The notes under the pieces are model-generated. The model did not search any database. It was not told where the DNA came from and worked only from the letters and a program-made list of their open reading frames with translations. Below, piece after piece: positions 8,425 through 42,936 of a DNA stretch of 64,000 nucleotides. The position numbers and the translations under genes were made by a program. Numbering within the stretch: position 1 is the stretch's first letter; each line of letters starts with the position of its first letter. Source of the DNA: a virus (lineage: Duplodnaviria > Caudoviricetes); IMG/VR virus record IMGVR_UViG_3300010885_080481, one strand, 5' to 3'.

Positions 8425-8428
8425 TAAC

Positions 8429-9880: not shown

Positions 9881-9881
9881 C

Positions 9882-10475: not shown

Positions 10476-10505
10476 AGATCACCTTATAAATAATTATTCA
10501 TAATG

Positions 10506-13552: not shown

Positions 13553-13560
13553 ATATTTAT
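13553..13560 (+). promoter_or_regulatory. ATANTTAT promoter-like motif (ATATTTAT)
   Basis: Intergenic, 34 nt upstream of the ATG at 13595. Confidence 0.5.
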
Positions 13561-13594: not shown

Positions 13595-14986
<1,392 letters not shown>

Positions 14987-14994
14987 TAATCTAT

Positions 14995-15038
14995 CGGCCC
15001 GTTGCGGTTCACCCCTCCCGACTACAGCGGGCCGTTTT
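14995..15038 (+). terminator. Probable intrinsic terminator
   Basis: cggcccgttg (14995-15004) pairs with cagcgggccg (15025-15034, one G-U), followed by tttt; the 20-nt loop is large. Confidence 0.5.
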
Positions 15039-15081
15039 ACGTGTTCCTAAACTATCAAAAAATTTGTAGTAGAATCGGTGT

Positions 15082-17343: not shown

Positions 17344-17387
17344 CATATTTCCGCGCTAAATGATACATAGAAATTAGAGAAGAAAAC

Positions 17388-19712: not shown

Positions 19713-19730
19713 GAAATTCGGAGGAAAATC

Positions 19731-20981: not shown

Positions 20982-21018
20982 TTCGTCACATTTTGTAACG
21001 TCGCTGAAAGGTTAGATT

Positions 21019-21987
21019 ATGCCTGTTAAATTTAGAAGAGTTGGAATAACCAATAACATTTATAATTCTGGATTTCCGGTTGGGAGACCAGCACTTGGTC
21101 CTGCTGGGCCGCAAGGAGAAACAGGACTAGCTGGTCCGACCGGACCTACCGGTCCAACAGGTCCGACCGGATCTGTTGGTCCAACTGGTACAGCTGGTTC
21201 CGCTGGTCCGCAAGGACCGACTGGGCCATCAGGATCGACTGGGTCGCAAGGTGATAAAGGCGAAACAGGAGCCGCTGGCGATCGAGGAGAGACAGGGCCG
21301 ACAGGACCTGCTGGTTCGACAGGTCCTCAGGGTGACAGAGGCGACAATGGTGCTACGGGAGCAACCGGTGATAGAGGAGAAGCAGGACCGACAGGCCCGT
21401 CTGGGTCTACAGGACCTCAAGGTGACAGAGGCGACAATGGTGCTACAGGCGATCAAGGTCCCACAGGCGCCGCAGGGCCGACTGGTCCGACAGGACCTCA
21501 AGGTAATCGTGGCGATAACGGCGCGACGGGTGCCACGGGTGCCACGGGCGCCACGGGTGATCGCGGCGAAGTAGGCGCTACAGGGGCGACTGGCCCTACG
21601 GGGACAGCCGTCGGAAGTTTCTTGTTTTACTTTGGTGCTACAAGCATAAGCATTGATGCAACGAGATACTTGTATCCGGGAAGCTCCACTTCTGCAGCAT
21701 CATCTACCATCGTCCAAATTCCTATGCCAATAAGAGGTAATATCACTAAAATGTACCTTGCTCAATTAGCTGGTTCAGGAACTCGATCTATTGATTATAA
21801 ACTTTACGTAAATGGATCTGCATCAGGCATGGGCGTATCAACAACCACTAGTGGCACCGACGCAAATACCACAGACTCTATCTCGATATCCTTAGGCGAT
21901 AAAATTGCCGTGGCATCAGTACCAGCTGCAGGGACGGGCACAACTCCATCTAATATAATGATAGTAGTAGTTCTTGAGCCTACGTGA
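21019..21987 (+). CDS. Collagen-like protein with a C-terminal beta-sandwich head (BclA-like layout)
   Basis: 57 uninterrupted Gly-X-Y triplets (21097-21609), 27 with Thr at Y; C-terminal ~125-aa beta domain. Confidence 0.85.
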
Positions 21988-22030
21988 TTCCGCAATTTAC
22001 TTTAACAAAAACAGAAATATCATATAAGTC

Positions 22031-25550: not shown

Positions 25551-26891
25551 ATGGCGACAAGATTTAATTCCAAGAGTTCTCCAAAGTATGGAGTTTCAGG
25601 CATAGCCGATAAAACCCATCAAGATTCACCTGACCTTTCAATTCCGTCAGTCGGGATTGAAGATGTCGACGTGTCGCTTTTCAATCTATTTGAAAAAGAA
25701 ATTCCTCTTCAGGTAAGCGGAGACAATTCTACCCCTAAGAAAGTGCCTGTAATTTTTGCCTCTGGCGAAAAGTGGGCAATGTTAAAAAAGTATCAAGCTA
25801 TCAGGGATAGAAATGGATCATTAATATTGCCTCTGATCACAATCTTAAGAAATTCGATAGAACAGGATCTCACAAACGACATTGCTGGTAGAGGTATCAA
25901 TCAGCAGACCAACGAAATCGTGATCCGCAGAAGGTTGGATAAATCTGATAGAAGCTACCAAAATTTGATCAACCGTTACTTAGTAAAGAATCAAAAAAAT
26001 GTGGCGACTAACAACTATAGAGAGCATCTGCCTGATCAACTGTTGACCAACAGAAGTGTTGGCGAAGATCAAGATGACCCCACTATAATAGATGGTGGAT
26101 GGTTGGCTGATATAAAATCTAAAAATATTTACGAGACGATCGTCATACCATCACCTCGATTTTGTTCTATCAAATATGATGTATCACTATGGACACAATA
26201 CACCCAGCATATGAATCAGTTGCTAGAACAAATAATGTCATCATTTTTACCGCAAGGTAATGCGTGGCGTTTAGATACGCCTAAAGGCTATTGGTTCATC
26301 GCGACAGTTGACGGGTCATTTGATCCAGAAACTAATTTCGAAGCGATAGAGCAAGAAGAAAGATTGGTGAGACATAAATTTTCTGTGAACGTAAATGCTT
26401 ATATCTTCGCCGGAGCCGCGCCTGGCGTCAATGTGCCAATCAAACGTTACGTTTCTTCGCCCGTGGTCACTTTTGATACGGGTTTAGAACCGAATGTTGG
26501 CTCAGGTATGAGTAAGACGGCAAACACGACTGGCAATCCATTTCTAGGGTCTGATGATCCGACCTTACCTTTGTCCAATGACAAAAATCGTCGACCAGAT
26601 CAAAGAAATACTGGAACCAGACTGTATGATCCAAAAACCGACAATTTGGCGACAACTGATCCTGCTCTCAACGCCAGAACCGCTCAGCAGTATAACCCCG
26701 TGTACACGAAAGTTGTGTCTCAAGATTCAACGGGCAAACAAGTCATTAAATATGATAGGTCTTATAGGGTTACAGCAGCATCTGGGGAGACAGTCTTGAA
26801 ACCAGCTTCGGATTTTGTATCAAAACCAGGAATAGCTACGGCCGATGCAATCTTAGGCGGGTTGACTTACGAGAGCGGCAACGACCTCTAA
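25551..26891 (+). CDS. Tail terminator/sheath-stabiliser-like protein (T4 gp15-like)
   Basis: IEDVD.SLF..F, VPVIFASGEKW, LPLITI.R, P..C.I.YDVSLWTQY..HMNQLLEQI; immediately upstream of the sheath genes. Confidence 0.6.
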   Translation: MATRFNSKSSPKYGVSGIADKTHQDSPDLSIPSVGIEDVDVSLFNLFEKEIPLQVSGDNSTPKKVPVIFASGEKWAMLKKYQAIRDRNGSLILPLITILRNSIEQDLTNDIAGRGINQQTNEIVIRRRLDKSDRSYQNLINRYLVKNQKNVATNNYREHLPDQLLTNRSVGEDQDDPTIIDGGWLADIKSKNIYETIVIPSPRFCSIKYDVSLWTQYTQHMNQLLEQIMSSFLPQGNAWRLDTPKGYWFIATVDGSFDPETNFEAIEQEERLVRHKFSVNVNAYIFAGAAPGVNVPIKRYVSSPVVTFDTGLEPNVGSGMSKTANTTGNPFLGSDDPTLPLSNDKNRRPDQRNTGTRLYDPKTDNLATTDPALNARTAQQYNPVYTKVVSQDSTGKQVIKYDRSYRVTAASGETVLKPASDFVSKPGIATADAILGGLTYESGNDL

Positions 26892-26936: not shown

Positions 26937-26944
26937 ATACTTAT
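26937..26944 (+). promoter_or_regulatory. ATANTTAT promoter-like motif (ATACTTAT)
   Basis: 40 nt upstream of the sheath-1 ATG at 26985. Confidence 0.55.
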
Positions 26945-26984: not shown

Positions 26985-29900
26985 ATGGCCGAGCAAGTAT
27001 TCAGATCGCCTAATTTTTTTGAACGTGAAATTGAGCTCAAAGCTCCACCCCCTGGAGGTCCTGTAGGGGTTCCTGCTGGAGTAATCGGGACTGCTAGAAA
27101 GGGTCCTGCGTTCGTTCCTGTCACGGTCGCAAGCTGGAATGAGTTCGTTAGCGTCTTTGGCGATCTTGATCCAAAGAAGTTCGGTCCTTATGCCGTCAAT
27201 GAATTTTTGAAAAATCGTGCTTCTCTCACCTACATGCGTGTTCTCGGTGCAGGTGCCAATCGCACCGTTGGTGATATCTCGGATACGACTTCAACAGGTA
27301 GAGTTAAAAATGCGGGATTCAAGCTGACACCAACTCCGCTCGGCGGAGACAAGGATGCGCACGCAAGATCTACTGGAGACTTGCAGTTTTTGGTAGCTGA
27401 TCATACGATCGCCACCAACGAATCGGCAGGCATGCCGATGTTCACTGACAACGATTCTCGCACCCAAGCCAATAACATTTCTTTGGTCAGGGGTATGGTC
27501 ATGTTGGCTTCTGGTGCCAGAATGTTGGTATTGGATGGAGATGAGGTCCTTGGTACTAAAGCAGATACAGCTGTGGCAATTGATGATTCTGCTCAAATCA
27601 AATCAGGAAAGTTTAAGATAGTCATTTCTTCTTCTTTAGGCAGCAGCTTCTCTTTCGATGACAAGAAGACAGGCATCAAAATTTATACTGCCTCTATGAA
27701 TCCATCGAGCGCGGATTATTTCGGCAAGATCTTAAATAGAGATCCTGAGAAATTCGCTCAATATCAGCATCTTTTGTATACCGACTTTGCGGTGGACGAA
27801 GAAGTTGCTGGCGTTCTAGAAGGAGATTACATTGCAGTTCTATCAGGAACCGCGAACAAGAGTCTTACATCAGGTGACGTCACATCTGATTTTAGCTCTT
27901 CTTACACTTCTTTTAACACGAGATTCTCAACTCCAAAGACGACGTTCTTCATATCTCAACCTTTCGGTTCTACGGAATATGATCTATTCGCCGTTGAAGC
28001 AATCGACGACGGCGAGTATGCAAACAGTCTCTACAAGATTTCAATAAGCAATCTTAAAGTTTCAGAAAATGAAGCTTACGAGTATGGCACGTTCAATCTG
28101 CAGATCCGCGATTTTAATGACACTGACATTAATCCACGCGTGATTGAAGAGTTCGTCAACTGTTCTTTGGATCCTGATTCTAGTAACTACGTCGCAAAAC
28201 TTGTCGGTGACCGTAAGGTGACGTACGATTTTGATCAAGACATATCGACAGAGCGCCGCATCGTCACGACTGGTAAATATCAAAATGTGTCGAAGTTCGT
28301 CAGAGTCGTCATGTCAACGGCCGTCGAAGAGAAGAAGGTTCCTGCTCGAACGTTGCCTTTCGGCTTCCGCGGCGCAGAGGTGTTAAAGACCAATGATAGT
28401 TTAAGCGATCTTGCACCTTCTTTAACATTGAAGAGACTCGGCGGAAGACTTTTAAATAATGCTGATAGTTTTCTTTCAGGCGCAATACTCCCGCCGGTTC
28501 CATTTAGATACAAGGTAACAAAGGGTGCCGTTGATTCAACTCCTTCTTGGGACGGTGATCCTGGTCCTCTAGAGGCAGCAATGCCTTCTCTATACTGGGG
28601 CGTCAAATTCGAAAGAAACAACGATCCGTTGAATTGTAACCTTTCGGAAGAAAAGAATGTTTTGATTGAAAGCTATACCAAGTTCTTGGGAATCAAGAAG
28701 CTAGATGTTCTGGTTACGGGTTCTGGTGCTGATTCTTTCAACAACAACAAGTTCACATTAGCAAAGGTGGCTTTTGCCAACGCGGCGATTTCCGATCTCA
28801 CAGGGACAATCAGATCTCATATGAGAGAGGCAGCATATATCAGAAATGCGAAGGTAGATCCATCGACGTATGTCGTGAAAGACCCAGTGTTGGGTGACAG
28901 AATAACATTCGCATCTTTGTTATCAAACGGTCAAGCTTACGAGTTCAACAAATACTCTAGCTTTGCTAAGTTCACTACGTTTATGCAAGGCGGATTTGAT
29001 GGTTTAAACATACTCGACCCCGCTGCCCGCCGCATGAATGATAAAGCTACTTCTTTTGAAACTCCAAATGGAGCTGCTTCATCGATTTATGTATCACCAG
29101 GACTCAAAACCAATGTGGCAGGATCTGATGTGTCTAACAATGCTATCAGCTCTTATACTACAGCCATTGATTTAATGACAGACCCACTACAGGTTAACGT
29201 CAATCTCTTGGCAATTCCTGGAATTAGAGAGGATTACATAACTAACTACACGTCTAAGAAAGTTAGAGATTATGGTTTATCCATGTACGTTATGGACATT
29301 CCAAACTATGATGATAATGGCGATCGTTTGTATGACGACTCAACCAACCGTATCAATATTGAGAACACGGCGTCGGTTTTTGAAGACAGAACGTTCGATA
29401 ACAATTATGTAGCCACTTACTTCCCGAACGTTTACGTAAATGATCCGACTAACAAACGTTATGTAAAAGTACCTGCATCTGTTGCGGCCTTGGGTGCAAT
29501 TGGATTCAATGATCAAAATGCATATCCATGGTTCGCTCCTGCCGGATTTAATAGAGCAGCCTTGGACTTCGTTAACAATGTTGAAGTCAGATTGAACGTT
29601 TCCGATAGAGATAGATTGTATGATGCTAGGATCAATCCGATCGCAACGTTCCCTCGTCTGGGATTCGTTATCTACGGTCAAAAGACGTTGCAAATCAGAA
29701 AATCTGCTCTTGATAGAGTAAACGTTCGTAGATTGCTTCTCGAGGTGAAGAGAATCATCATAGGAATTGCCAACAGAATCATCTTTGAGCAAAATACACC
29801 AGCGGTTCGCAACAAGTTTGTAGCCGACGCAATTCTTCAGTTAGGTCTCATTCAGACGCAGGCTGGCATCGAAGCATATCAGGTCATTATGAATGAAACA

Positions 29901-30026
29901 AATAACACGCAGGAAGACGTCGACTTGAATCGTCTGAATGGTAGGATCGTTGTTGTCCCGACAAGAGCGATCGAGTTCATTGCTATCGACTTTATCGTAA
30001 CCAATTCTGGTGTCGAATTTGTTTGA
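26985..30026 (+). CDS. Contractile tail sheath protein 1
   Basis: Start at 26985 (AGGAG at 26973-26977). SPNFFEREI, GTARKGPAFVP, PWFAPAGFNRA, RDRLYDARINPI, GQKTLQ...SALDRVNVRRLL, PTRAIEFIAIDF. Confidence 0.92.
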   Translation: MAEQVFRSPNFFEREIELKAPPPGGPVGVPAGVIGTARKGPAFVPVTVASWNEFVSVFGDLDPKKFGPYAVNEFLKNRASLTYMRVLGAGANRTVGDISDTTSTGRVKNAGFKLTPTPLGGDKDAHARSTGDLQFLVADHTIATNESAGMPMFTDNDSRTQANNISLVRGMVMLASGARMLVLDGDEVLGTKADTAVAIDDSAQIKSGKFKIVISSSLGSSFSFDDKKTGIKIYTASMNPSSADYFGKILNRDPEKFAQYQHLLYTDFAVDEEVAGVLEGDYIAVLSGTANKSLTSGDVTSDFSSSYTSFNTRFSTPKTTFFISQPFGSTEYDLFAVEAIDDGEYANSLYKISISNLKVSENEAYEYGTFNLQIRDFNDTDINPRVIEEFVNCSLDPDSSNYVAKLVGDRKVTYDFDQDISTERRIVTTGKYQNVSKFVRVVMSTAVEEKKVPARTLPFGFRGAEVLKTNDSLSDLAPSLTLKRLGGRLLNNADSFLSGAILPPVPFRYKVTKGAVDSTPSWDGDPGPLEAAMPSLYWGVKFERNNDPLNCNLSEEKNVLIESYTKFLGIKKLDVLVTGSGADSFNNNKFTLAKVAFANAAISDLTGTIRSHMREAAYIRNAKVDPSTYVVKDPVLGDRITFASLLSNGQAYEFNKYSSFAKFTTFMQGGFDGLNILDPAARRMNDKATSFETPNGAASSIYVSPGLKTNVAGSDVSNNAISSYTTAIDLMTDPLQVNVNLLAIPGIREDYITNYTSKKVRDYGLSMYVMDIPNYDDNGDRLYDDSTNRINIENTASVFEDRTFDNNYVATYFPNVYVNDPTNKRYVKVPASVAALGAIGFNDQNAYPWFAPAGFNRAALDFVNNVEVRLNVSDRDRLYDARINPIATFPRLGFVIYGQKTLQIRKSALDRVNVRRLLLEVKRIIIGIANRIIFEQNTPAVRNKFVADAILQLGLIQTQAGIEAYQVIMNETNNTQEDVDLNRLNGRIVVVPTRAIEFIAIDFIVTNSGVEFV

Positions 30027-30045
30027 TGCAAACGTCGGGAGATTT

Positions 30046-30053
30046 ATACTTAT
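30046..30053 (+). promoter_or_regulatory. ATANTTAT promoter-like motif (ATACTTAT)
   Basis: 25 nt upstream of the sheath-2 ATG. Confidence 0.55.
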
Positions 30054-30078
30054 CATGCAAAGCTTAGGAGCGATATAA

Positions 30079-33000
30079 ATGGCACAGCTCAAATTTGGAA
30101 GCGCAGGAGTAACATCAAGAGAAATCGACCTATCAGGTCCAGTAGAAACCTCACCAACAGGTGTTCCAGCTGGCGTGATTGGAACATCTGTTAAAGGACC
30201 AGCTTTCGTACCTCTGACGTACGGAAACTTAAAAGACTTTTTTGCTAAGTTTGGTGAAAGCGATTCAAAAAAGTTTGGTCCTATCGCTGTGGCTGAGTGG
30301 TTGAACAACGCAACTTCGGTCACGTATTTACGCGTTCTCGGTGTGGGTGATGGTAAGAAACGTACGGCCTCCGGTGCTGTGACGAATGCTGGTTTTACGG
30401 TAGGCGAAAAGCAACCTGATTCTACCGGAATGTTGTCTTACAATTCTTATGCAAATCAAGAAGGATCCCCTGGCAGAACTTACTTCTTGGGTTGCTTTAT
30501 GTCAGAGTCTGCAGGTTCTACTTTCTTCAGCGACGCAGGCCTTCAAGGGTTGAACAGAGTAACATCTCCTAATTCGTTAGATGCAGCCGTGCCAATTGTC
30601 AGAGGAGTTTTAATGGCTCCTTCTGGAGTTCTAATTAGACTATCTGCCTCACACGGTCCGGCCTTTTCTTCAGCTCCTACATTAACGACAACAGGTCGTG
30701 AGTTAGATCCCAATTTGAGAGGTACTACGCTGGGTTCAGTAGTGCTGGACTCTTCCAAACAAGAGTTCACATTACTTCTAAATGGGCATAGAGGCCTTGA
30801 TTCCGCTTATCCCAACGTATTGACCGCTTCTTTCGACGTTAATTCGGCTAACTTCTTGACGAAGGTTTTAAATACAGATCCTTACAAAATACAACAAGCA
30901 GGTCATTATTTAGCGGCTCACTGGGATATTCATCCTGCAGTTGCTGTCGTAACGGGGACGGGACTAATTTCAGCCGGCGCTTTTTCGTATGGATTAGCGG
31001 ATCTTCGACGTGGCAAAGAATCTTCTGCTTTCTTGTTGACTTCGTCTCAAGCATACGATGCAGGAACAACGTCTGTTCCAAACTTTGAATCATTCAAAGA
31101 TAGGTTCTCTAATGCAAAATCTCCCTGGGTGATCTCGCAAAAGTTTGGCGGAAATCCAATAAACCTATTTAGATTTCATTCTTTGGACTCTGGCGTTGGC
31201 GTATCTAACAAGTTTAAAATTACTATCGCCAACATCGTCCCTTCAACCGCAGCAAATTACAAATACGGTTCGTTCAATGTCGTAATTCGAGCTTTCGAAG
31301 ATAATGATATAGATCAAAAAGTTTTAGAAAGCTTCAACGGAGTCAATCTAGACCCATCATCCGATAGATACATCGCTAAGGTTCTAGGCGATATTAACGC
31401 ATACTATGATTTTGACAGAGATGAAGCAAGCCAAAAACTTGTCATCGAAGGAAACTATACGTTACGATCTCGTTTCGTTCGTGTTGAAGTATCGAACGAG
31501 GTGTTGGACATGGCAGTAGACTCCACCGCTCTACCAATGGGATTCAGAGGAATTGCTCACCTTGTAACATCTGGATCTGTTCTTAAGACTCTCTCCGCCG
31601 CCGACGCGGCTGAGTTAACAGCCGCAGAGTACATAAAAAATGTTGTAGAGTCTCCGTTGCCTTTCAGAAAAACGATCATAGACGGAACAGGATTACAAGC
31701 TCAAGAAAACGCTAGGTATTGTTGGGGCGTTAAGTTTGAACACACGACAGATCTTGCGGAACAGAACAGCGGTAACTCCCCAGACAAATCCTTAAATTAC
31801 TTCACAAGTTACTTCCCTGATTTTTCAACAACAAATATGAACTTTGTTGTCGGCGATAATTCAGGAGCTCCGGACACATCCACAAATGGTATTCTGGACG
31901 CTGACAGATTCTGTAACAATCTTTTCACTCTTGAACACATTAAGATTACGACAGGATCTAATGGCACCGTTGATCAACCAGATTCTTGGAAGTATGCAGA
32001 GTACGTTCGCAGGGGGTCAATTCCGACCGACGATACAGGCAAAACCCGTGCAATCAATGTATCTGATCTATCATTCTCGCAGAACAGAAGATTCCTCAAA
32101 TTCACCATGGTCATGCAGGGTGGATTCGACGGCGTCAACATCTTCGATGAGAATGAGCATCAGATCAACAACGCAGCCGTCACCGCAGACATGGGCGATG
32201 CTAACAGAGGTGGAAGCAGAGGTCCAAACGTAAGCTCTTATCTCAAGGCATTGGAAGTTATGAAGAACACCACAAACGTGGATATTCAATTACTCGCAAT
32301 ACCTGGTATCAGAACTCCCGTTGTGACCGATGCCGCCCTCGCAGCAACAGAAGAGCGTTTTGACGCTCTCTACATCATGGACATGGAACAGGTAGACAAG
32401 AATGGCAACCTGATCAACGTCACAGGAACCGCTAAACCTTCCGTAACTGAGACGATTGCCCAACACAAGGCTCGTAACCTCAACACGTCCTTCGCAGCAA
32501 CTTACTTCCCTGACGTGCTGATGAGAGATCCTTCAAGGGCATCCAACACCGTCGTTGTTCCACCTTCGGTCGTCGTCCTCGGAGCCTTGGCGTTGAATGA
32601 TGCTCTAGGATATCCTTGGTTTGCTCCCGCAGGTCTCACCCGCGGCGCACTTCCCACTACGCTAGAGACCAGCATCCAGCTGAAAGACGAAGATCTCGAC
32701 GCTCTATATGATGAAGACATCAATCCTCTTTACGCGCAAATAACGCAGGCTAGATCAGGATTGAATCCGAAGGGAGGAGTCGTCGTCTGGGGTCAGAAGA
32801 CGCTGTACCAAGCTGCTTCAGCTCTTGATAGAATCAACGTCCGTCGTCTCCTTATCGACATCCGTCGTCAGGTTCGTGAGATCGCTCAAACGATCATCTT
32901 CGAGCCAAACCGCGAAGCCACCCTCGCCCGCTTCTCTGCCGCTGTCACCCCTCGCTTGCAGAGAATTCAGGCCCTCGCCGGACTAGAAAGGTTCAGAGTC

Positions 33001-33141
33001 ATCATTGATTCTTCGACCACAACCCAGGCCGACGTGGAGAACAACACGGTTAGAGGAAAGATATTCCTCCAGCCAACAAAGACGATAGAGTTCGTTTCTC
33101 TAGACTTCGTCGTGGCAAACAACCTCCAGTCAGTCACCTGA
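30079..33141 (+). CDS. Contractile tail sheath protein 2
   Basis: SAGVTSREIDLS, GTSVKGPAFVP, PWFAPAGLTRG, LYDEDINPL, WGQKTL...SALDRINVRRLL, PTKTIEFVSLDF. Confidence 0.92.
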   Translation: MAQLKFGSAGVTSREIDLSGPVETSPTGVPAGVIGTSVKGPAFVPLTYGNLKDFFAKFGESDSKKFGPIAVAEWLNNATSVTYLRVLGVGDGKKRTASGAVTNAGFTVGEKQPDSTGMLSYNSYANQEGSPGRTYFLGCFMSESAGSTFFSDAGLQGLNRVTSPNSLDAAVPIVRGVLMAPSGVLIRLSASHGPAFSSAPTLTTTGRELDPNLRGTTLGSVVLDSSKQEFTLLLNGHRGLDSAYPNVLTASFDVNSANFLTKVLNTDPYKIQQAGHYLAAHWDIHPAVAVVTGTGLISAGAFSYGLADLRRGKESSAFLLTSSQAYDAGTTSVPNFESFKDRFSNAKSPWVISQKFGGNPINLFRFHSLDSGVGVSNKFKITIANIVPSTAANYKYGSFNVVIRAFEDNDIDQKVLESFNGVNLDPSSDRYIAKVLGDINAYYDFDRDEASQKLVIEGNYTLRSRFVRVEVSNEVLDMAVDSTALPMGFRGIAHLVTSGSVLKTLSAADAAELTAAEYIKNVVESPLPFRKTIIDGTGLQAQENARYCWGVKFEHTTDLAEQNSGNSPDKSLNYFTSYFPDFSTTNMNFVVGDNSGAPDTSTNGILDADRFCNNLFTLEHIKITTGSNGTVDQPDSWKYAEYVRRGSIPTDDTGKTRAINVSDLSFSQNRRFLKFTMVMQGGFDGVNIFDENEHQINNAAVTADMGDANRGGSRGPNVSSYLKALEVMKNTTNVDIQLLAIPGIRTPVVTDAALAATEERFDALYIMDMEQVDKNGNLINVTGTAKPSVTETIAQHKARNLNTSFAATYFPDVLMRDPSRASNTVVVPPSVVVLGALALNDALGYPWFAPAGLTRGALPTTLETSIQLKDEDLDALYDEDINPLYAQITQARSGLNPKGGVVVWGQKTLYQAASALDRINVRRLLIDIRRQVREIAQTIIFEPNREATLARFSAAVTPRLQRIQALAGLERFRVIIDSSTTTQADVENNTVRGKIFLQPTKTIEFVSLDFVVANNLQSVT

Positions 33142-33161
33142 TTGTAACAGTTGTTAGAGAT

Positions 33162-33194
33162 GAAGAGCCGTTCACAGCGGCTCTTCTTTCATTT
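33162..33194 (+). terminator. Intrinsic terminator after sheath 2
   Basis: gaagagccg (33162-33170) / cggctcttc (33178-33186), perfect 9-bp stem followed by tttcattt. Confidence 0.7.
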
Positions 33195-33315
33195 GCGTTA
33201 GGTATGATTAGAATGCTCTCTAATAATTTTTCTGTTAATTCATTGGGTGATAAACGTAAGAATTATAAAAATAACCTGTGAAGGATCCTGCTGAGGCGGG
33301 CCTTTTTACGTTGTG

Positions 33316-33323
33316 ATAGTTAT
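33316..33323 (+). promoter_or_regulatory. ATANTTAT promoter-like motif (ATAGTTAT)
   Basis: 20 nt upstream of the sheath-3 ATG and downstream of two hairpins. Confidence 0.5.
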
Positions 33324-33343
33324 TGTCGTAAAAAGAAATTGCG

Positions 33344-36343
33344 ATGAGCGAATACAAGTTTAACAGCGCAGGGATATCGGCTCAAGAAATTGGACTGATT
33401 GGTCCGACGGACGAAGAAGATGTTCCATTCGGTCGGAACGCTTGCATTATAGGAACTTCTTTTATTGGTCCTGCATTTGTTCCTTTGACTTTAGGAACTC
33501 AAAGGAAATTTCAAGCAAAATTTGGCGACCTCGACGCGAAGTTGTTCGGTCCTTTCGCCGTGAGAGAATGGTTGAGCAACGCCAACTCTGTCACCTACAT
33601 GCGTGTTCTGGGGATCGGAGATGGCAAGAAGAGAGGTCCCGACGGAGATGTGACGTCAGCTGGATTCACTGTCGGCGAGGAATTGCCTTTCGTCTCATCT
33701 AGCGGGTACATCGTTTCAAATAGCTTTGCAAACTCCGGAGGTCCGTTAGGCAGAACTTATTTCTTGGGTTGCTTCATGTCTGAGTCGGAAGGCAACACCT
33801 ACTTTAGTTCAGCTGGGTTACAAGGAACTGGTAGCCAAAATAATATTGTTTCCGCCGCCGTTCCAATCATCCGTGGCATATTGATGGCGCCATCAGGGGT
33901 TATATTACGCCTGTCTTCATCAGGCGGAGGGTACAATTCTAGCGCTCCTCCCTTGACGTATGTGGCTAATGAATCTACGACTTATGGAACCACCTTGGGA
34001 TCAGTCACACTTTTGGATGGAAACAGCTCTGTCAAACAAGAGTTTGTGTTGTTGCTGAATGGCCACACTGCTGGGGATACTGCTATTACTGCTTCTTTTG
34101 ACATGCAAGCTCCTAATTACTTCCCGAAAGTATTCAACACGACTGCATCTTACATTCAAGAGAAGGGACATTTCCTCTACACACATTTTGACATTCATCC
34201 TTCTACAGCTGAGTTGACAGGAACGAATGCGGTGACCGCTGGAGCTGGAGCTGATTCAGATTCTAATAGGATATTTGGAACTGAGAGATCCATCTTCTTG
34301 ATCACGTCTTCATTGGCTCGGAACGTTGGTTCAAGTACGGTCCCCAATTACGAAAACTTTAGAGACAGATTCACTCATTCCAAGACTCCTTGGTTCGTCT
34401 CACAGGATTTTAGAGGTAATAGGCACAACCTATTCAGACTGCATCTATTGGGTGATGGAACTCAAGAGTTTCAGTCTTATAAAATCACGATAAAGGATAT
34501 AACGCCTGCGGCGCCCGATTCTATCTACGCATATGGTACCTTTAGTATATTGGTACGTAACTTGATAGATCCAGATGGAGAGACCTCAACTCCTGTAGAA
34601 AAATTCATAGGCGTCACCTTGGACCCTTCGTCTGACAAGTACATCTCAAAAGAAATTGGAGACGTCAATGCATTTTACGACTTCGACAGGCCTGATAACG
34701 AGCAGAAGCTAGTCATAGAAGGTAACTACCCGTTAAAATCGAACGTCATAAGAGTTGAGGTGTCTGAAGACGTCAAAAACAAGAAGGTTCCTTTCGATTC
34801 TCTCCCTGTGGGATTTAGAGGAATCTCTCATCTGGTCACCTCCGGATCAGCACCTTTAGCCACGCTAAATTCGGCCGACGCTTCAGCGTTGGTTTCTGCT
34901 GGCTACGTAAAAAATATGGTGCAGCCTCCTCTGCCCATGCGTTTTAATAATAGAGCAGTAAACTTGCAAACGACTCCTTCTACCAACAAATCTTGGGGAG
35001 TGATGTTTGATCATGCAGGACAGAATAGCAACGACATCAAACAGCCCTTGATGTTTCTATTTGGATACACCTCTCATTATCCTGAACATGCCTCGAGCAA
35101 TGCAAATTTTGCGGTTGGTGATAACGTCGGCGTCCTTGATACATCTGCTAATGGCATCATGGATGCGGACAGATTTTGCTACAATTTCTTTACTCTAGAA
35201 AACATAAAAATAATCACAGGATCCAACGGAACAGTCGATCCGCCATATGACTGGAACTTGGCTGAGTACGTGAGGAACGGCGATATTCCCGAGAATCATA
35301 AAGAGAAATCGAGAAGGATTGGTATGGGAGATTTCTTGTCGGCTTCTAACTCAGGATATCTACGTTATGATGTGATCCTGCAGGGCGGTTTCAATGGCGT
35401 CAACATATTCGACACAGATGAATCAGATTTGACGTCGACAGCCGTGAAGGCCGACATGGCCGACCCAGCCCGTGGCCGCCTCAAGGGGCCTTCCGTGATA
35501 TCATATAAAAAATCTTTAGAAATAATCGGTAATTCTACGAACACTGATTTTAGCATTTTTGCTATTCCTGGAATTAGAGAACCTGTCATCACTGATGAAG
35601 CCACCCTGACAGCCGAAGATCGCTTCGACGCTCTCTACGTTATGGATGTAGAGAACGGTTCGACTCCGAAAGAAACAGCAGAGACATTGAAGAATCGTGT
35701 CATAAATTCGTCTTTTGCGGCCGCTTATTATCCTGATGCGGTCATACGGTTGTCTCCTCAATTGAACACAGAGTACGTGGTTCCACCTTCGGTCGTTGTC
35801 CTTGGAGCTCTGTCTCTCAACGACAGCATAGGACAACCTTGGTTTGCCCCTGCTGGTGTGACAAGAGGGAAGTTGGTATCGACGGTAAAAACGACAGTGC
35901 CACTAAATGAAAAAGATCTTGACACTTTGTACAAGAGCAATATCAACCCCTTATACGCGACGACTAACATTGAAGGTGTCAATCAATTTCAAAATGTGAG
36001 CGCCGTTGTCGTATGGGGGCAAAAAACGTTGCAATTGGCAAATGCAGCCGTCAACAGGATCAACGTCAGACGGTTGTTAATCGAGGCTCGCCGCGCAGTG
36101 AAAGAAGCTGCTCAAACGGCATTATTTGAACCAAATAGACCTGAATCCGCCGTTAGGTTGACCAACATCATATCTGAAAGATTGGCAACGATAAAATCTT
36201 TAGGTGGTATGGATGAATTTAGAGTGTCTCTCTCACCATCAAATGATCCAGAATTTTTGACAATTCGTGGTCGTGTTTACGTTAAACCGAAGAAAACACA
36301 AGAATTTGTGACTTTAGATTTCTCAGTTTCTAATGATGAATAA
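33344..36343 (+). CDS. Contractile tail sheath protein 3 (diverged paralogue of sheath 2)
   Basis: SAGISAQEI, GPAFVP, GRTYFLGCFMSES (identical in sheath 2), PWFAPAGVTRG, WGQKTLQ, RINVRRLL, PKKTQEFVTLDF. Confidence 0.88.
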   Translation: MSEYKFNSAGISAQEIGLIGPTDEEDVPFGRNACIIGTSFIGPAFVPLTLGTQRKFQAKFGDLDAKLFGPFAVREWLSNANSVTYMRVLGIGDGKKRGPDGDVTSAGFTVGEELPFVSSSGYIVSNSFANSGGPLGRTYFLGCFMSESEGNTYFSSAGLQGTGSQNNIVSAAVPIIRGILMAPSGVILRLSSSGGGYNSSAPPLTYVANESTTYGTTLGSVTLLDGNSSVKQEFVLLLNGHTAGDTAITASFDMQAPNYFPKVFNTTASYIQEKGHFLYTHFDIHPSTAELTGTNAVTAGAGADSDSNRIFGTERSIFLITSSLARNVGSSTVPNYENFRDRFTHSKTPWFVSQDFRGNRHNLFRLHLLGDGTQEFQSYKITIKDITPAAPDSIYAYGTFSILVRNLIDPDGETSTPVEKFIGVTLDPSSDKYISKEIGDVNAFYDFDRPDNEQKLVIEGNYPLKSNVIRVEVSEDVKNKKVPFDSLPVGFRGISHLVTSGSAPLATLNSADASALVSAGYVKNMVQPPLPMRFNNRAVNLQTTPSTNKSWGVMFDHAGQNSNDIKQPLMFLFGYTSHYPEHASSNANFAVGDNVGVLDTSANGIMDADRFCYNFFTLENIKIITGSNGTVDPPYDWNLAEYVRNGDIPENHKEKSRRIGMGDFLSASNSGYLRYDVILQGGFNGVNIFDTDESDLTSTAVKADMADPARGRLKGPSVISYKKSLEIIGNSTNTDFSIFAIPGIREPVITDEATLTAEDRFDALYVMDVENGSTPKETAETLKNRVINSSFAAAYYPDAVIRLSPQLNTEYVVPPSVVVLGALSLNDSIGQPWFAPAGVTRGKLVSTVKTTVPLNEKDLDTLYKSNINPLYATTNIEGVNQFQNVSAVVVWGQKTLQLANAAVNRINVRRLLIEARRAVKEAAQTALFEPNRPESAVRLTNIISERLATIKSLGGMDEFRVSLSPSNDPEFLTIRGRVYVKPKKTQEFVTLDFSVSNDE

Positions 36344-36372: not shown

Positions 36373-36380
36373 ATAATTAT
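36373..36380 (+). promoter_or_regulatory. ATANTTAT promoter-like motif (ATAATTAT)
   Basis: 32 nt upstream of the tail-tube ATG. Confidence 0.5.
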
Positions 36381-36412: not shown

Positions 36413-36901
36413 ATGGCTGAAACCCTTGACGTAACGTCAATGATCCCAAACAAATTTGAACCCAAACGCAAGAACCGTTGGGTCCTCATGATCGAAGGCA
36501 TCGATGCCTACATTTTGAAAACCGCCGCACGCCCACAGATATCGACGGAAGAAGTTGCTGTTCCTTTTATCAACTCAACCCGTTATCTTGCAGGTAGGAC
36601 AACGTTCGGACAGATGAGCGTGACGCTCCACGACCCCATTGCTCCTTCTGGCGCACAACAGGTCATGGAATGGGTTCGTTTACACTTTGAGTCTGTTTCA
36701 GGTCGTTCAGGTTATGCAGACTTCTACAAGAGAGATGTTCAGTTGAAGATGCTTGATCCTGTTGGCACTGTCATCGAACTTTGGGACATCAAGGGTGCGT
36801 TCATCATGGAAGCAAACTTCAATGATCTAACGTACGAAGATGGCGGCCCTGTTGAAATCGCTTTAACGTTGCGTTATGACAACGCCGTTCTGCAGTACTG
36901 A
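36413..36901 (+). CDS. Tail tube protein (T4 gp19-like)
   Basis: FEPKRKNRW...I.GIDAY, RP.I..EEV..PFIN..RY.AGR, DPIAPSGAQ.VMEW, YADFYKRD..L.MLDPVG...E.W...GAF, I.LTLRYD. Confidence 0.9.
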   Translation: MAETLDVTSMIPNKFEPKRKNRWVLMIEGIDAYILKTAARPQISTEEVAVPFINSTRYLAGRTTFGQMSVTLHDPIAPSGAQQVMEWVRLHFESVSGRSGYADFYKRDVQLKMLDPVGTVIELWDIKGAFIMEANFNDLTYEDGGPVEIALTLRYDNAVLQY

Positions 36902-36979
36902 TCTGGAGACTTCAATCAAAACTATTCGTTTGGAACCGTCAAGTTAAGCAGACTGAACTGGTTAACTTGTTAATTCTCG

Positions 36980-37006
36980 AAGGCCCAATTTTTTGGGCCT
37001 TTTTTT
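36980..37006 (+). terminator. Intrinsic terminator after the tail tube gene
   Basis: aaggcccaa-tttt-ttgggcctt followed by a T run. Confidence 0.8.
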
Positions 37007-37056
37007 ATTTACAAAAATTTAAAAAGATATAATTTGATCTTGATATCAGGAGACAT

Positions 37057-37929
37057 ATGTCAGATCAACGAGAAGTCAAAAATTCCATTTTCAATCCTAA
37101 CATGCCTGGAGGGGTCGATCCTCGCATGCCTATGCAATCCGTCGCGGACAAGCTGAAGGCAGAGTTCGGATTAGACATTCCGACAGAGCTAGTTCCGCTT
37201 CCATCATGCGGTAAGGTATATCCCCCTGAGATGTCTTTGCATAATCAAGACGTCGTTGAGATTCGTCCAATGACCGCAAGAGAAGAAGACATTCTAACTT
37301 CTAGAGCTCTTATCAAAAAGGGTACCGTCATCACTGAGCTGATCAAGGCTTGTCTCGTGGATAGATCAGTAAGCACGTCTGATCTCTTGGTTGGTGATAG
37401 AAATGCTCTAATGATGGCGATTCGTATCACGGGATACGGTCCTGATTACACGACTGAGATGGATTGTGACGAATGCAGCTCTAAAAATCAACAGACATTC
37501 AATCTATCAGAACTACCCATCAAGAAGCTTGAGATAGATCCTGTCATTCATGGTCAGAACGTTTTCGAGTTTTTGCTACCAAGAACAAAAAAGAAGGTCA
37601 GATTCAAGTTCTCTACTGGTCGTGATGAGGAAGAAGCTTCCATTTTAGCAGAAAAACAAAAGAAGCTTGGATTAGGTGCCGAGACTGGTGTCACAACGTC
37701 TTTGATGCAATCAATCTTGTCAATCGACGGTATAGAAGACAGGGTCAAGATCTCTAATTTTATCAAGTACATGCCTGCTCAAGATTCGTTGGCATTAAGA
37801 AACTACATGAGGGAGCACGAACCTGGTGTCACGATGAAGCAAGAGGTCGTGTGTCCTGCCTGTGGGAACACAGAGGAGGTCAACATGCCATTAGGCATCA
37901 ACTTTCTTTGGCCTTCGTCCAGAAGATAA
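37057..37929 (+). CDS. Tail assembly chaperone / baseplate hub assembly protein (T4 gp26-like)
   Basis: VPLPS.G..Y, IRPMTAREEDILTS, LL.GDRNA..M.IR..GYG..Y, CxxC pairs (CDEC, CPAC); AGGAG SD; directly after the tube gene. Confidence 0.75.
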   Translation: MSDQREVKNSIFNPNMPGGVDPRMPMQSVADKLKAEFGLDIPTELVPLPSCGKVYPPEMSLHNQDVVEIRPMTAREEDILTSRALIKKGTVITELIKACLVDRSVSTSDLLVGDRNALMMAIRITGYGPDYTTEMDCDECSSKNQQTFNLSELPIKKLEIDPVIHGQNVFEFLLPRTKKKVRFKFSTGRDEEEASILAEKQKKLGLGAETGVTTSLMQSILSIDGIEDRVKISNFIKYMPAQDSLALRNYMREHEPGVTMKQEVVCPACGNTEEVNMPLGINFLWPSSRR

Positions 37930-38538: not shown

Positions 38539-41500
38539 ATGGCACCTCCTGGCGGCGGAACCGGCGGCGGAAGTGGTGGCGGAGGTGGGATAAACCCTGA
38601 CATCATCAGATCGCTTACTGAATTGCTTGGGTCTTCCAACACAAACCTGGAAAGGATGTTGGAGAACCTCGGTCGCCTCGGCGCGAGCTCTCAATCGTTG
38701 ACGGGTCTTGCCGGTGCCGCGCAGGAATTATCAGATCATTTGGGAGGGTTGGGTCGATCTCTCACAGATCTGCAAAGACTGTTGGGTAGAGTCAATGATC
38801 AGTCAAAGAAGCAATCTTCCATTCTGAAGATGATGGGTTCAGCCTGGAAGACATTTGGGGCGGCCGTCAAGGGTGCTATGAACATCTTGAGTGGGTTGAC
38901 TGACGTCATATCGACCGTGGGAGGAGCGCTATGGGATTTAGGCGCCGCAATCATAGCAGCTCCATTTGAGATGTTGAACTGGCTTATCAAAAAATCCAAG
39001 CAAGTCATTGGAAGCGGTACTGAAATAGCTGAGGCTTATGAAAAGATTCGTGAGCAATTCGGAGATTTGACCAAGGGCACCTCAAAGGACGTGATCGATT
39101 TCGGCAAGAGTATGGCCACTGGGATGATCACCCCTACGTTGTCCGCCAGGAGAGTGTTCGGGTCCTTAGCAGAGTCTTTGAATAAAGCCCTCGAGGTGGC
39201 TCAGGCCGCCCCTGCTACCTTCCAGCTCTTATCTGATCAGTTTGAGAAGAATGGTCTAGAGATAATGGCCATGGCAAACGGCCTTGGCCTCGGTAATGAA
39301 GAACTCACAGCGTTACAGCAGAGAGCCATCGCAACAGGCACGTCTCTCGTGGATCTTGAGTCAGAGATAACGAAGTACGCAAAGGGAATGTCTGCTCAGT
39401 TCGGATTAAACTCCAAAGCCATGTCTAGAGACATGGGCCGAGCGCTGAAAGACGTCAAACATTTTGCTAATTCTACTGTCAAAGAAATTGCGCAAGCCAC
39501 GACGTACGCTCATAAATTAGGCTTAGAGCTTAAAGACATTACTGGCGTTCTAGATAAGTTCAACACGTTCGACGAAGCTGCTGAGAACGTGTCTAAGCTG
39601 TCGCAGGCCTTCGGCATCAACGTCGACGCAATGAAGCTTGTTGAAGCAAAATCTCCAGCCGATGCGTTAGACATGATCAAACAGGCGATGGCCGCAGCCG
39701 GTAAGTCTGCAGATCAGATGAATCGACAAGAGCTGCAACTTCTCGCCTCGACGGTCGGTATGTCTGAAGAGCAGGTTCGAATGGCTTTCTCCATGAAGAA
39801 CTCCGGCGTCTCGATGGACAAGGTGAAACAATCTGGGACCGGATTGGAACATCAGATGATGAGCACATCTGAGGCAGTGGCATCTCTCGCTGATGACATG
39901 AAGCGAGTGGTCAAAGCAGGCCAGCAACCTGCTGGCGATTCTTTCTTTGAGATATTTGTCGAGGGTTTCTTAGAAGGAATCGACACCTCAAAGACGTTCT
40001 TGTCCTTGCTGCAGGCAGTGATGAAGGACATGTATATTGTTCGTGATGCCGGCCGCCAATTGGGCAGAGCATTCATTGAGAACTTCCCGGGGGTTAAGGA
40101 CTTTATCAACGGATTGAAAGAGATGTTGAACCCGACGGCGATAAAAGGATTGATGTCCAACGTCGTCAACATATTCAAGGATTTCTTCGATCAACTTAAT
40201 AAAGGCACTGCTGACACAGGCAAGCTGTTTGATTCGTTGGTGGATGGTTTCACAAATTTCGCCGAAAAAACTTCAGGTGGAAGCCAGATGTTGAAAGGGT
40301 TGAAGAATATCTGGAAAGCTGTAGAAAGAATCATTTCTACGGGCATCGATTGGTTATCTAACAAGCTCAAGACGGGATTAGAATTCATCGTAAAGTTATT
40401 GAGTGGAGACTTTAACAATGCCATTGCAAACGCTGCTGAAGCTGCCCCTGGCGCTATTGGCGATGCCCTCGGCGGTGCAGGTGGAGCAATTGCCGAATCT
40501 CCAATTAGTAAGGCATTTATATCCGCATTTCAAAAGCTATCAGGACCTTTAGAAAAAATCTTCGATTTGTTGTGGGATAAAATTGTTGCTAAATTAGGAA
40601 ACGTTTTAAAACAATATAAATGGGAAATTGCTTTATTTGCATTAGGTCCAACTATAGCAAACTTAACGGTAAGTGCAATATCTGGCGCATTATCAAATCC
40701 TGGGGTGATTTCTGCTTTTTCAAAATTAGGCCCCTTGCTGGCTAATCCCCTCGGTCTCGCCGTGGGTGCATCTGTTGCGATTGTCGCGGGCGCAGCATAT
40801 ACGATTAACAAAGATCTTGAAAATTATCAAAATAATCTAAGAAGAGATGCTGCATTAACTTTAAAAGCAGAAAAAGAAAAAAATAAAACCTTTTTAGATC
40901 AAAATGCTACCATTGAACAACAAATTACGTTATTACGTGCCCGTGCCGCCGAAGGCGATAAAAATGCTGCTGCAGAAGCGAATAGGCTAGAAAAAGAACA
41001 AGAAGCTACGCGTCAACAACGTTTATCTGGTCAAGGGAAATCAACAGAGGATGCTCTTCGCCCTGCTATTAAAGAACTTGGATCAACCGTTAACATAAAC
41101 GAAGAAAAAATGGAGGAATTTCTCGATCGTGCCCAAGCTCAGGTCACAGACTCTATAGCTTCGCGTGTCAAAGGTGCAGCTGGTAAGCAAGCTGAAACTC
41201 TTAGACAAATGGAAAATGAATTCTATATGACTTCTGGGTCCCCGGAGTTGAGTGCCCAAGGGCAAGCGTTGTTAGAAAAGATGAAAAGCGACGTTACGAT
41301 CAGAGAAAGGTTGTTAAAAGCAACAGTCGACGAACTAGATACGGAAAACCTCGAATTATTGAAAGATATTCTTCCTGAATATGATGAAATTGATTTTAGT
41401 AGTTCAGACGCAAGTATTATTAAGCTCGCCGGAATGCGAATGAACGCCGAGGACGCCGCGGCTAAGGAGGCCGCTGCCGAGTCTCAAGAAAGTGTCTCAA

Positions 41501-42936
41501 AAAGGATTAAGAATCTAGGAGAAAGTATCAAAATTACTCCTGAACAGCTTAGAGGTTTGGTTGATCCTACTACCGGTATGGCGATTAGCCTCGAAGATCT
41601 AGAGGCTCTAAAGACCACCGGCGGGGAATCAGCCGTTGCAGAAGCTTTAGCTGCAGCAGCTGTTTCAACCGATCCTAACGCTCTCAAAAAATCCATGGCT
41701 GATAAACAAAAAGAACAAGCTGATGCGATTGGGGCAGCCCGTCGCGAAGCGCTTGAAGCATTGGATCTTGGTTCAGATTTCAGTGTGAAGAACGTTGAAG
41801 AATCGATAAAGAAAGTCGAAGATCTCACGAAAAATCTAGATGAAGGTTTGCTGAACAAAGTTACTGAATCTATAAAAAAGATTAGAGAAAAATTTGATTC
41901 GGCTGATTTTAGAATATTTACCGACCCCAAAAAAAGCGATGAGATAACTCAAACAGCTATAGATCTTAAAATGATTAATTCTGTTTTCGTAGGCATAGCT
42001 GATGCCGCCGATAATATGGAGAATATCCCAAAAGCAGCTGCGAAATTAGCTCAACTTCCTGAAAATGCCAAGTCTTATGGTACAAGTATTACAAAAATAA
42101 AAGACACGTTGTTCGGTTCCGAAGGAATAATTACAAAAATTGTTGATATTAAAGGTTCAGCTGAAAAATACGTCCCTCAAATTGAAAGCACAAACGAAAC
42201 GATTGGAAAGATAAAAGACGGTGTGGATGGCGCCGCGACTTCTATAGGAACAATCATGGATGCTTTACCGAAATTGCAACGTGGCGGTGGATTGTCAAGC
42301 GCATTCTCAGCTATAGATACTATCGCTAAGTCTTCCGGTAACCTGAAGGGTGAATATGAGGCTGGATCCGCAGTGAAGGACAAAGTCGCTTCAGCTATGG
42401 CGGCCGCCAAGGTGGCAATGACCGAAGCAGCATCTAGTATGCCGAGTTTGGTGACCGCTTCAACGGACTTGTCAAAGATCCTCACGGACGACGTCAACAG
42501 ATCCATTGACGGAACTGCCAACAGGGTCGCTCAACTGTTTGCGTCTCTAGAGAAATTTATAGCAACGACAGCCAAACCGCTCGTCGCGCAGCAAGCTCAG
42601 GAGCTCGGCGCCAAGGTCAAGTCGATGGTTGATGCCATCAACGAGCTTAACACCGCGATGACTGACATCAAGATTGGCGAAAATGGTGAAGTCAACGTTA
42701 AGATGAAAAACCTAGCCAAGGGCATCAACAAGGCGGATCACAAGTACACAATAGAGAAGAAGAACGCCATCATTAACTTGTCAGTCAGTGTGTCAATGTC
42801 GGTGACCGATGTCGAGAGCATGCTCATAAAGAACCCGAACTCGCTGATTAGACTCCGTATCAACGAAGCTCTCAAACCGCTTGATAAAAAAATTAGCGAC
42901 AGCGGGGGATCCACTGTCCCCGCCGACATAGTATGA
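38539..42936 (+). CDS. Tail tape measure protein
   Basis: 1465 aa, Ala/Lys/Glu-rich, helical, with hydrophobic Ala/Gly stretches; canonical position after tube and chaperone. Confidence 0.85.
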   Translation: MAPPGGGTGGGSGGGGGINPDIIRSLTELLGSSNTNLERMLENLGRLGASSQSLTGLAGAAQELSDHLGGLGRSLTDLQRLLGRVNDQSKKQSSILKMMGSAWKTFGAAVKGAMNILSGLTDVISTVGGALWDLGAAIIAAPFEMLNWLIKKSKQVIGSGTEIAEAYEKIREQFGDLTKGTSKDVIDFGKSMATGMITPTLSARRVFGSLAESLNKALEVAQAAPATFQLLSDQFEKNGLEIMAMANGLGLGNEELTALQQRAIATGTSLVDLESEITKYAKGMSAQFGLNSKAMSRDMGRALKDVKHFANSTVKEIAQATTYAHKLGLELKDITGVLDKFNTFDEAAENVSKLSQAFGINVDAMKLVEAKSPADALDMIKQAMAAAGKSADQMNRQELQLLASTVGMSEEQVRMAFSMKNSGVSMDKVKQSGTGLEHQMMSTSEAVASLADDMKRVVKAGQQPAGDSFFEIFVEGFLEGIDTSKTFLSLLQAVMKDMYIVRDAGRQLGRAFIENFPGVKDFINGLKEMLNPTAIKGLMSNVVNIFKDFFDQLNKGTADTGKLFDSLVDGFTNFAEKTSGGSQMLKGLKNIWKAVERIISTGIDWLSNKLKTGLEFIVKLLSGDFNNAIANAAEAAPGAIGDALGGAGGAIAESPISKAFISAFQKLSGPLEKIFDLLWDKIVAKLGNVLKQYKWEIALFALGPTIANLTVSAISGALSNPGVISAFSKLGPLLANPLGLAVGASVAIVAGAAYTINKDLENYQNNLRRDAALTLKAEKEKNKTFLDQNATIEQQITLLRARAAEGDKNAAAEANRLEKEQEATRQQRLSGQGKSTEDALRPAIKELGSTVNINEEKMEEFLDRAQAQVTDSIASRVKGAAGKQAETLRQMENEFYMTSGSPELSAQGQALLEKMKSDVTIRERLLKATVDELDTENLELLKDILPEYDEIDFSSSDASIIKLAGMRMNAEDAAAKEAAAESQESVSKRIKNLGESIKITPEQLRGLVDPTTGMAISLEDLEALKTTGGESAVAEALAAAAVSTDPNALKKSMADKQKEQADAIGAARREALEALDLGSDFSVKNVEESIKKVEDLTKNLDEGLLNKVTESIKKIREKFDSADFRIFTDPKKSDEITQTAIDLKMINSVFVGIADAADNMENIPKAAAKLAQLPENAKSYGTSITKIKDTLFGSEGIITKIVDIKGSAEKYVPQIESTNETIGKIKDGVDGAATSIGTIMDALPKLQRGGGLSSAFSAIDTIAKSSGNLKGEYEAGSAVKDKVASAMAAAKVAMTEAASSMPSLVTASTDLSKILTDDVNRSIDGTANRVAQLFASLEKFIATTAKPLVAQQAQELGAKVKSMVDAINELNTAMTDIKIGENGEVNVKMKNLAKGINKADHKYTIEKKNAIINLSVSVSMSVTDVESMLIKNPNSLIRLRINEALKPLDKKISDSGGSTVPADIV

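Follow-up and report, generated by a model that had tools for sequence, protein, structure and literature searches.

Three tandem gp18-type tail sheath genes in an uncultured lake phage: a candidate multi-subunit contractile sheath

The contractile sheath of a phage is regarded as a homopolymer of a single protein, and every phage sheath entry among the PDB matches listed agrees with this view. The subject of this work is a 64,000-nucleotide stretch of IMG/VR virus record IMGVR_UViG_3300010885_080481 (hereafter the window), where three consecutive genes, designated S1, S2 and S3, each encode a tail sheath protein of about 1000 amino acids (aa) and are accompanied by one tail tube gene. The phage is an uncultured one from a lake, with a genome of roughly 200 kb. 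Sheaths composed of several paralogues have been described in the extracellular contractile injection systems (eCIS). In Serratia, Afp2, Afp3 and Afp4 polymerise into the Afp sheath (PMC12961389), and in the Photorhabdus PVC particle PlPVC1 the Pvc4 protein forms a single initiator ring and Pvc2 and Pvc3 alternate in layers, Pvc3 carrying a knob that is thought to dock folded fibres (PMC12546770). Some phage genomes also encode two sheath copies (PMC9230969). For Pseudomonas phage PaBG (Baikalvirus), one report describes a two-component sheath made of gp76 and gp213, which are 38% identical and derive from a duplication, and its Table 1 places both among the virion bands (PMC7412058).

We propose, with a probability of roughly 0.6, that the phage represented by the window builds one contractile sheath from more than one gp18-type subunit, with S1 and S2 as co-major components and S3 as a low-copy specialised one. 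New in this work are the origin of S3, the conserved signature of weak translation and the shifted constraints that it shows, the extent of the clade with two sheath genes, and a second, independent third paralogue.

Three gp18-type sheath genes at one locus

In the table of open reading frames (ORFs) the three sheath genes lie on the + strand and are followed by a short tube ORF, just where the original prediction had placed three sheath ORFs of about 1000 aa and one tube gene. S1 (26985–30026, 1013 aa from an ATG) is preceded by the Shine–Dalgarno (SD) sequence GAAGGAG and S2 (30079–33141, 1020 aa) by TAGGAGC, while the SD of S3 (33344–36343, 999 aa) is weak. Although the longest S1 frame opens with a TTG (26922), the ATG at 26985 is preferred owing to the GAAGGAG sequence and to a start that agrees with those of the paralogues, and use of the TTG appears unlikely. 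All three proteins match the PHROG family phrog_23 'tail sheath' (E 1e-34 to 1e-53). The product of the gp19-like tube gene (36413–36901, + strand, 162 aa) matches phrog_4542 'tail tube protein' (E 8e-28), its match to Pfam PF06841 being weak. The tube gene is single-copy, no second one being found within the window, nor was a fourth sheath copy, and the whole records of five relatives hold no extra non-adjacent sheath copies.

The full-length amino-acid identity (BLASTP) is 51% between S2 and S3, 33% between S1 and S2 and 28% between S1 and S3, which bears out the predicted greater distance of S1. The S2/S3 alignment has few gaps and contains the exact shared blocks reported in advance, GRTYFLGCFMSES, GFRGI.HLVTSGS and VVPPSVVVLGAL. 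The accompanying claim of patches of high DNA identity proved overstated, as these patches reach only 66–84% over 32–356 nt, and no sign of recent gene conversion between S2 and S3 was found at the DNA level.

A profile of this sheath family recognises residues 465–649 of T4 gp18, i.e. its C-terminal domain (gp18 domain IV), with E 1.6e-40, but the eCIS sheaths (Pvc2–4, Afp2–4) with E 1e-6 to 1e-16 only. AlphaFold (AF2) models of S1 and S3 were built from 53-sequence alignments and reached a predicted local distance difference test (pLDDT) score of 82.5 and a predicted template modelling (pTM) score of 0.85 for S1, and 80.1 and 0.78, respectively, for S3. In Foldseek searches with the S1 model the sheaths of T4 (gp18) and Klebsiella phage KP1 rank first (E about 1e-18 to 1e-19), and the S3 model aligns with T4-type sheaths from residue 22–30 to residue 983–997 (Z 21–24). 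Both proteins are thus predicted to fold as complete sheath subunits, N-terminal arm and C-terminal strands included, and for S2 a full-length fold is indicated by homology, given its 51% identity to the modelled S3 with few gaps. The first 24–26 residues are disordered in both models. Sheath subunits donate their N-terminal arm to a neighbour in so-called handshakes, so this disorder is to be expected. Such a handshake has been described for PVC (PMC12546770). We conclude that S1, S2 and S3 are full-length sheath proteins of the T4 gp18 type and not of the eCIS type.

The tandem array might in principle be an artefact in which the assembler had collapsed strain variants, a case that the original prediction had itself raised, or a set of decaying pseudogenes. 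The stretch is, however, found in lake and freshwater metagenomes of several studies. In run X2, contigs with 0 differences bridge the S1/S2 (record 5), S2/S3 (record 7) and S3/tube (record 8) junctions, and in run X4, from another study and another year, one 5-kb contig (record 21, 29226–34229) spans both sheath junctions. The S1–S2–S3 order is complete in about 21 of 56 related IMG/VR loci, which show 47–96% amino-acid identity to the window, and 7 more end inside the third gene. The paralogues are only 28–51% identical, far past strain variation, and all are open frames of about 1000 aa with ratios of non-synonymous to synonymous substitution (dN/dS) of 0.03–0.05. By the Nei–Gojobori method the values against the closest relative (L006) are 0.028 for S1, 0.053 for S2 and 0.036 for S3, at a dS of about 0.9–1.2. 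All three copies are under strong purifying selection and none is decaying. On the grounds of the bridging contigs, the independent loci and the dN/dS values, we reject both the mis-assembly and the pseudogene readings, to which we assign a negligible probability.

When whole records were searched, the three-sheath relatives proved to have exactly three copies, all adjacent, and a 309-kb record with a completeness rating of 91% to have exactly two, likewise adjacent. The sequence of the window occurs in viral contigs that reach about 206 kb. No near-identical DNA was found in cultured phages, and a pattern scan of 185,579 prokaryote genomes with S1 returned no prophage or bacterial relatives.

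Descent and constraint of the paralogues

In a tree of 57 sequences the sheath proteins form two clades, S1 and S2+S3, each with 100% support. The S2 genes of two-sheath phages (L030, L032, L034, L038, L040 and L041) branch first within the S2+S3 clade, and the next node, with 100% support in the approximate likelihood-ratio test (SH-aLRT), splits a monophyletic S3 from the S2 of the three-sheath phages. Since S3 is nested inside S2, it derives from a single, later duplication of S2 that dates to the common ancestor of the subclade to which the window belongs. Relative to S2, the branches of S3 are longer by a factor of two to four, and S3 is intact in every three-sheath relative.

The S1/S2 pair is much older and more widespread. 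S2 has more than 2000 homologues in metagenomes, and a second scan with the family alignment added 80 more distant loci. Most of those that extend far enough show the order gp15–S1–S2–tube–hub, with S1 identity down to 36–41% and, in many two-sheath loci, gaps of 28–59 nt between the genes. Altogether, roughly 70 loci on complete or partial contigs carry two or three sheath genes, and a single one is present at each of five loci with about 28% identity. In a second tree of 67 rows the single-sheath relatives (Mel-JY01, L132, L133 and L138) fall outside a single S1/S2 duplication. The same groupings recur in both subtrees, S1 and S2 (e.g. L080+L124, L076+L089, L071+L074+L096 and L065+L091+L129), which indicates that the pair has been inherited together for a very long time. 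Judging from these trees, the uncultured phages of a very large clade are united by one ancient S1/S2 duplication.

Several loci depart from this pattern. Sheath-like ORFs of about 800–1100 aa, 24–28% identical to S2/S3 and without a Pfam match, follow the tube gene in L104 (10100–11620), L106 (8038–11373), L131 (3150–6374) and L135 (3157–5889). The copies of L106 and L131 make up a very long-branched group within the S2 lineage, which implies that a third paralogue arose at least twice. In L107 (5669–11525) the genes at the S1 and S2 positions group together with 99% support and not with the S1 and S2 clades, a pattern that could be due to gene conversion or to an independent duplication. The 484-kb uncultured phage LR756508.1 (L059) carries two sheath genes of about 830 aa (4867–7356 and 8365–10845) located 1 kb apart after a gp15-like gene, the tube gene lying about 7 kb downstream. 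Its sheaths branch outside the S1/S2 split, one of them with the single sheath of Mel-JY01, so that L059 looks like another multi-sheath lineage.

S1 is the most conserved of the three copies, and the constraints acting on them differ along the sequence. Among orthologues of S1 and S2 the first about 100 and the last about 170 residues are the most conserved parts (0.8–0.99), whereas in S3 the N- and C-terminal parts are the least conserved (0.42–0.55); in residues 131–195 of S3 conservation equals that of S2. The conserved ends of S1 and S2 align to the conserved sheath core, which in known sheaths bears the lattice and tube contacts. Between S1 and S2, the middle regions fall to 5–23% identity in several 40-column blocks, and no whole domain has been gained or lost.

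In pairs other than that with L006, dN/dS of S3 rises to 0.11–0.24 versus 0.03–0.06 for S1 and S2. Between L008 and L015, S1 and S2 are 97% identical and S3 only 71%; between L002 and L005 the relation is inverse, S3 being 98% (dS 0.18) and S1 92% identical (dS 0.84). The divergence of S3 is hence discordant with that of S1 and S2, which implies that S3 has been exchanged between co-circulating phages with near-identical backbones. Among the neighbours compared, no gene was found whose divergence tracks that of S3 between such backbones.

Expression signals and the proposed sheath

Promoter, terminator and SD signals were compared across 10 distinct three-sheath loci. No RNA dataset turned up that contains the whole stretch or its S3–tube part. 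A promoter-like ATACTTA motif (26937–26943, + strand) is located 48 nt before S1 and recurs at −39 to −48 in 10/10 distinct loci. The same heptamer (30046–30052, +) stands 33 nt before S2, with ATA[C/T]TTA at −33 to −38 in all three-sheath loci, and an ATAGTTA (33316–33322, +) stands 28 nt before S3, at −24 to −31 in all of them. A further variant, ATAATTA (36373–36379, +), precedes the tube gene by 40 nt. By manual comparison with the ORF table, 8 of the 26 ATAnTTA matches in the window lie 28–67 nt before gene starts, far above the share of sequence that such positions occupy. Besides the four named, which start at 26937, 30046, 33316 and 36373, these are the sites at 13553, 43191 and 4561 on the + strand and 12445 on the − strand. 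ATAnTTA is therefore a candidate phage promoter element unlike the TATAAATA of T4, its possible function being suggested by position before genes alone and not by window-wide enrichment. The T4 late promoter itself was discarded as a candidate, its two copies in the window being at chance level and neither of them near the sheath or tube genes, and so were sigma-70-like promoters, which show no enrichment in the window (21 found versus 28 expected).

Just after S2 there is an intrinsic-terminator-like hairpin with an 11 bp stem and a T-run (33162–33196, +), and another terminator-like hairpin with a T-run follows the tube gene (36979–37012, +). In 13/13 three-sheath loci (10 distinct) the 150–200 nt spacer between S2 and S3 contains a GC-rich hairpin with a T-rich tail, although the hairpin sequences differ between subclades. 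The energy of the anti-SD duplex in the window is −8.8 kcal/mol for S1, −6.5 for S2 and −0.9 for S3, and the means over the 10 distinct loci are −8.0, −6.6 and −2.2 kcal/mol, respectively. Read most simply, these signals predict comparable, high levels of the S1 and S2 proteins and far less S3.

Our central claim is co-assembly at fixed positions, and we infer it, together with the stoichiometry and position of S1–S3, from the integrity, homology, fold, selection and phylogeny of the genes and from their conserved expression signals. S1 and S2, an obligately co-inherited pair with a promoter-like motif and a strong ribosome-binding site for each gene, would co-polymerise round the single tube, most simply in alternating or otherwise ordered hexameric rings, and their middle regions, if these are taken as outer domains, would lend the surface of the tail two different outer faces. 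S3 would serve as a low-copy, position-specialised subunit, e.g. in the ring adjoining the baseplate or the neck. Such a role is suggested because its ribosome-binding site is weak, a terminator-like hairpin precedes it, it changes fastest in the parts that S1 and S2 conserve, and otherwise near-identical phages exchange it. The arrangement would parallel that of PVC, with its Pvc4 initiator ring and the alternating Pvc2/Pvc3 layers above it.

Several observations weigh against this proposal. The fast, mosaic evolution of S3 could reflect partly relaxed constraint in some lineages, where dN/dS reaches 0.24. The Pfam sheath domains (PF04984 and PF17482) score below the curated cut-offs in S1 and S2, and for S3 Pfam gives no match at E <= 0.01. 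Over the whole window ATAnTTA is not enriched (26 matches versus 33 expected), and the promoter, terminator and SD signals are readings of sequence only. Alternating rings, moreover, are one of several arrangements, and mixed rings or blocks fit equally.

The very different middle regions of S1 and S2 would also suit a sheath made of only one paralogue, most likely S1 or S2, the others acting as a non-virion assembly factor, as an outer decoration or as a sheath-like tube used elsewhere in the infection. We consider this improbable, given that all three proteins retain the whole fold, including the N-terminal arm and the C-terminal contact domain, that the ends of the fold are the best conserved parts of S1 and S2, and that the genes of two-sheath loci are packed between those of the terminator and the tube. 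Both PaBG paralogues, in addition, are virion proteins (PMC7412058). We find it similarly hard to favour subunits that are interchangeable or condition-specific and have no fixed position, with S3 as a swappable cassette under diversifying pressure, for example from a host defence that senses the sheath. The discordance of S3 in the L008/L015 and L002/L005 pairs does indicate cassette exchange, and a third paralogue did arise a second time elsewhere, as the ORFs after the tube gene. Nevertheless, simple redundancy does not account for S1 and S2 having been co-inherited in mirrored fashion, at equally low dN/dS, throughout a very deep divergence, nor for the SD of S3 being uniformly weak, and a sheath-sensing host defence is here a supposition.

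Compared with both alternatives, an ordered heteropolymer of S1 and S2 with a minor S3 appears preferable. A more far-reaching version of it, which we regard as speculative and rather doubtful though less so than the two alternatives above, would be that T4-like phages of lakes, seas and soils, a very large and entirely uncultured clade, have arrived convergently at an ordered sheath of the eCIS kind. In that scenario S1 and S2 rings would alternate to give a two-ring repeat that docks many collagen-like fibres, and S3 would form the end ring at the baseplate or neck in one subclade, its rapid cassette exchange tuning triggering or host interaction.

The heteropolymeric or position-specialised sheath put forward in the original prediction is thus favoured by copies that are intact, selected and kept clade-wide, but these copies are not equivalent, S1 and S2 being an ancient pair and S3 a recent S2 duplicate. 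As to the sequence-based checks named there, the dN/dS of each copy against L006 is that of a gene under purifying selection, and the copy-number survey shows two or three sheath genes kept clade-wide, with single-sheath relatives outside. Of the two objections anticipated, mis-assembly of co-occurring strains is excluded by the junction-bridging contigs, while relaxed selection on the other copies is contradicted by the comparison with L006 and retains some ground in the higher S3 values elsewhere.

Genomic setting and comparison with known systems

The neighbours of the sheath genes are phage genes, namely a head–tail adaptor-like gene, neck genes, a gp15-like gene and a hub-like gene, and collagen-like fibre genes and an endolysin are found further upstream. 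Directly upstream of S1 lies the gp15-like tail sheath stabiliser/terminator gene (25551–26891, +; phrog_227 'tail sheath stabilizer', E 1.7e-5), which occurs at the equivalent place in nearly all related loci. The baseplate-hub-like gene (37057–37929, +; phrog_150 'baseplate hub', E 2.9e-20) directly follows the tube gene, a position kept in all relatives. After the hub there is a 1465-aa gene (38539–42936 in the window; L008:20229–23048; L002:19497–23066) that shows 62–69% identity between phages otherwise 93–100% identical. It is the only other hypervariable neighbour, does not co-vary with S3, has no Pfam match and may encode a tape measure or an ejected protein. In L008 a reverse-strand gene (16329–17987, 552 aa) separates S3 from the tube gene and has a weak restriction-endonuclease-like domain (PF18741, below cut-off). 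Such an insert is also present in L012, L013, L015, L019, L024 and L029 and may be a mobile element. The G+C content is 0.53–0.54 at 14001–22000, where collagen-like fibre and glycosyltransferase genes lie, versus 0.37–0.45 elsewhere in the window.

The locus matters for several reasons. Within a very large group of uncultured phages, two sheath subunits have been maintained for a very long evolutionary time, and a third has joined them at least twice. The arrangement is widespread. If each subunit had its own layer as in PVC, these phages would illustrate how a homopolymer gives rise to ring-specific subunits, and they could be taken as natural templates for a contractile tail with addressable sites, where fibres are docked or triggering is controlled.

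The nearest solved structures by both profile and fold are those of T4 gp18 and T4-like sheaths (PDB 9mkb and 3j2m; Klebsiella phage KP1, 9ev2). As for T4 gp18-type sheaths, S1–S3 are encoded between the gp15-like terminator and the gp19-like tube genes, the gp15–sheath–tube order being common to T4 and the window. T4, however, has one sheath gene of 659 aa, whereas the window has three of about 1000 aa, whose middle regions are larger and diverge more. Microcystis phage Mel-JY01, the nearest cultured relative in the phage collection, on which our literature search found no paper, has its sheath, gp19-like tube and hub-like genes in the same order. Its sheath is 31–34% identical to S1/S2, but it is a single protein of 812 aa that branches outside the S1/S2 duplication.

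PaBG is the only published multi-protein phage sheath that we found, and multi-subunit sheaths are rare in phages; the same search returned no paper describing three sheath genes in one phage. The two-component sheath of PaBG was reportedly presented by Kurochkina et al. in 2018 (Virology 515:46), as cited by a later paper. PaBG resembles the phage of the window in being a large freshwater myophage with more than one gp18-family paralogue that arose by duplication. It differs in having two copies of about 550 aa that are not adjacent (gene products 76 and 213), instead of three tandem ones of about 1000 aa. At its sheath locus there is one gene of 547 aa, whose product matches only the C-terminal 250–290 residues of S1–S3 at 28–30% identity. 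In the 67-row tree, in which PaBG is not included, the single-sheath relatives take a place after the outgroups and before the S1/S2 split, and the PaBG duplication was probably independent of that which gave S1 and S2.

With the eCIS of the PVC and Afp types the locus has in common three tandem sheath paralogues per one main tube protein. The Afp analogy drawn in the original prediction is in this respect apt, although the single-sheath norm set beside it has a phage exception in PaBG and the proteins themselves are of the T4 type. The PVC and Afp sheath proteins have about 350–470 aa and are only distantly related to S1–S3; they are encoded by a bacterial injection-system locus, while the window comes from a phage with neck, endolysin and fibre genes. 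This distant homology and the phage setting imply that multiplication of the sheath genes is convergent with that in eCIS. For the window, the weak SD and the terminator-like hairpin before S3 are indirect hints of defined layers. By analogy, PVC nevertheless provides the best-documented mechanistic model for a sheath that would consist of two major subunits and one minor subunit.

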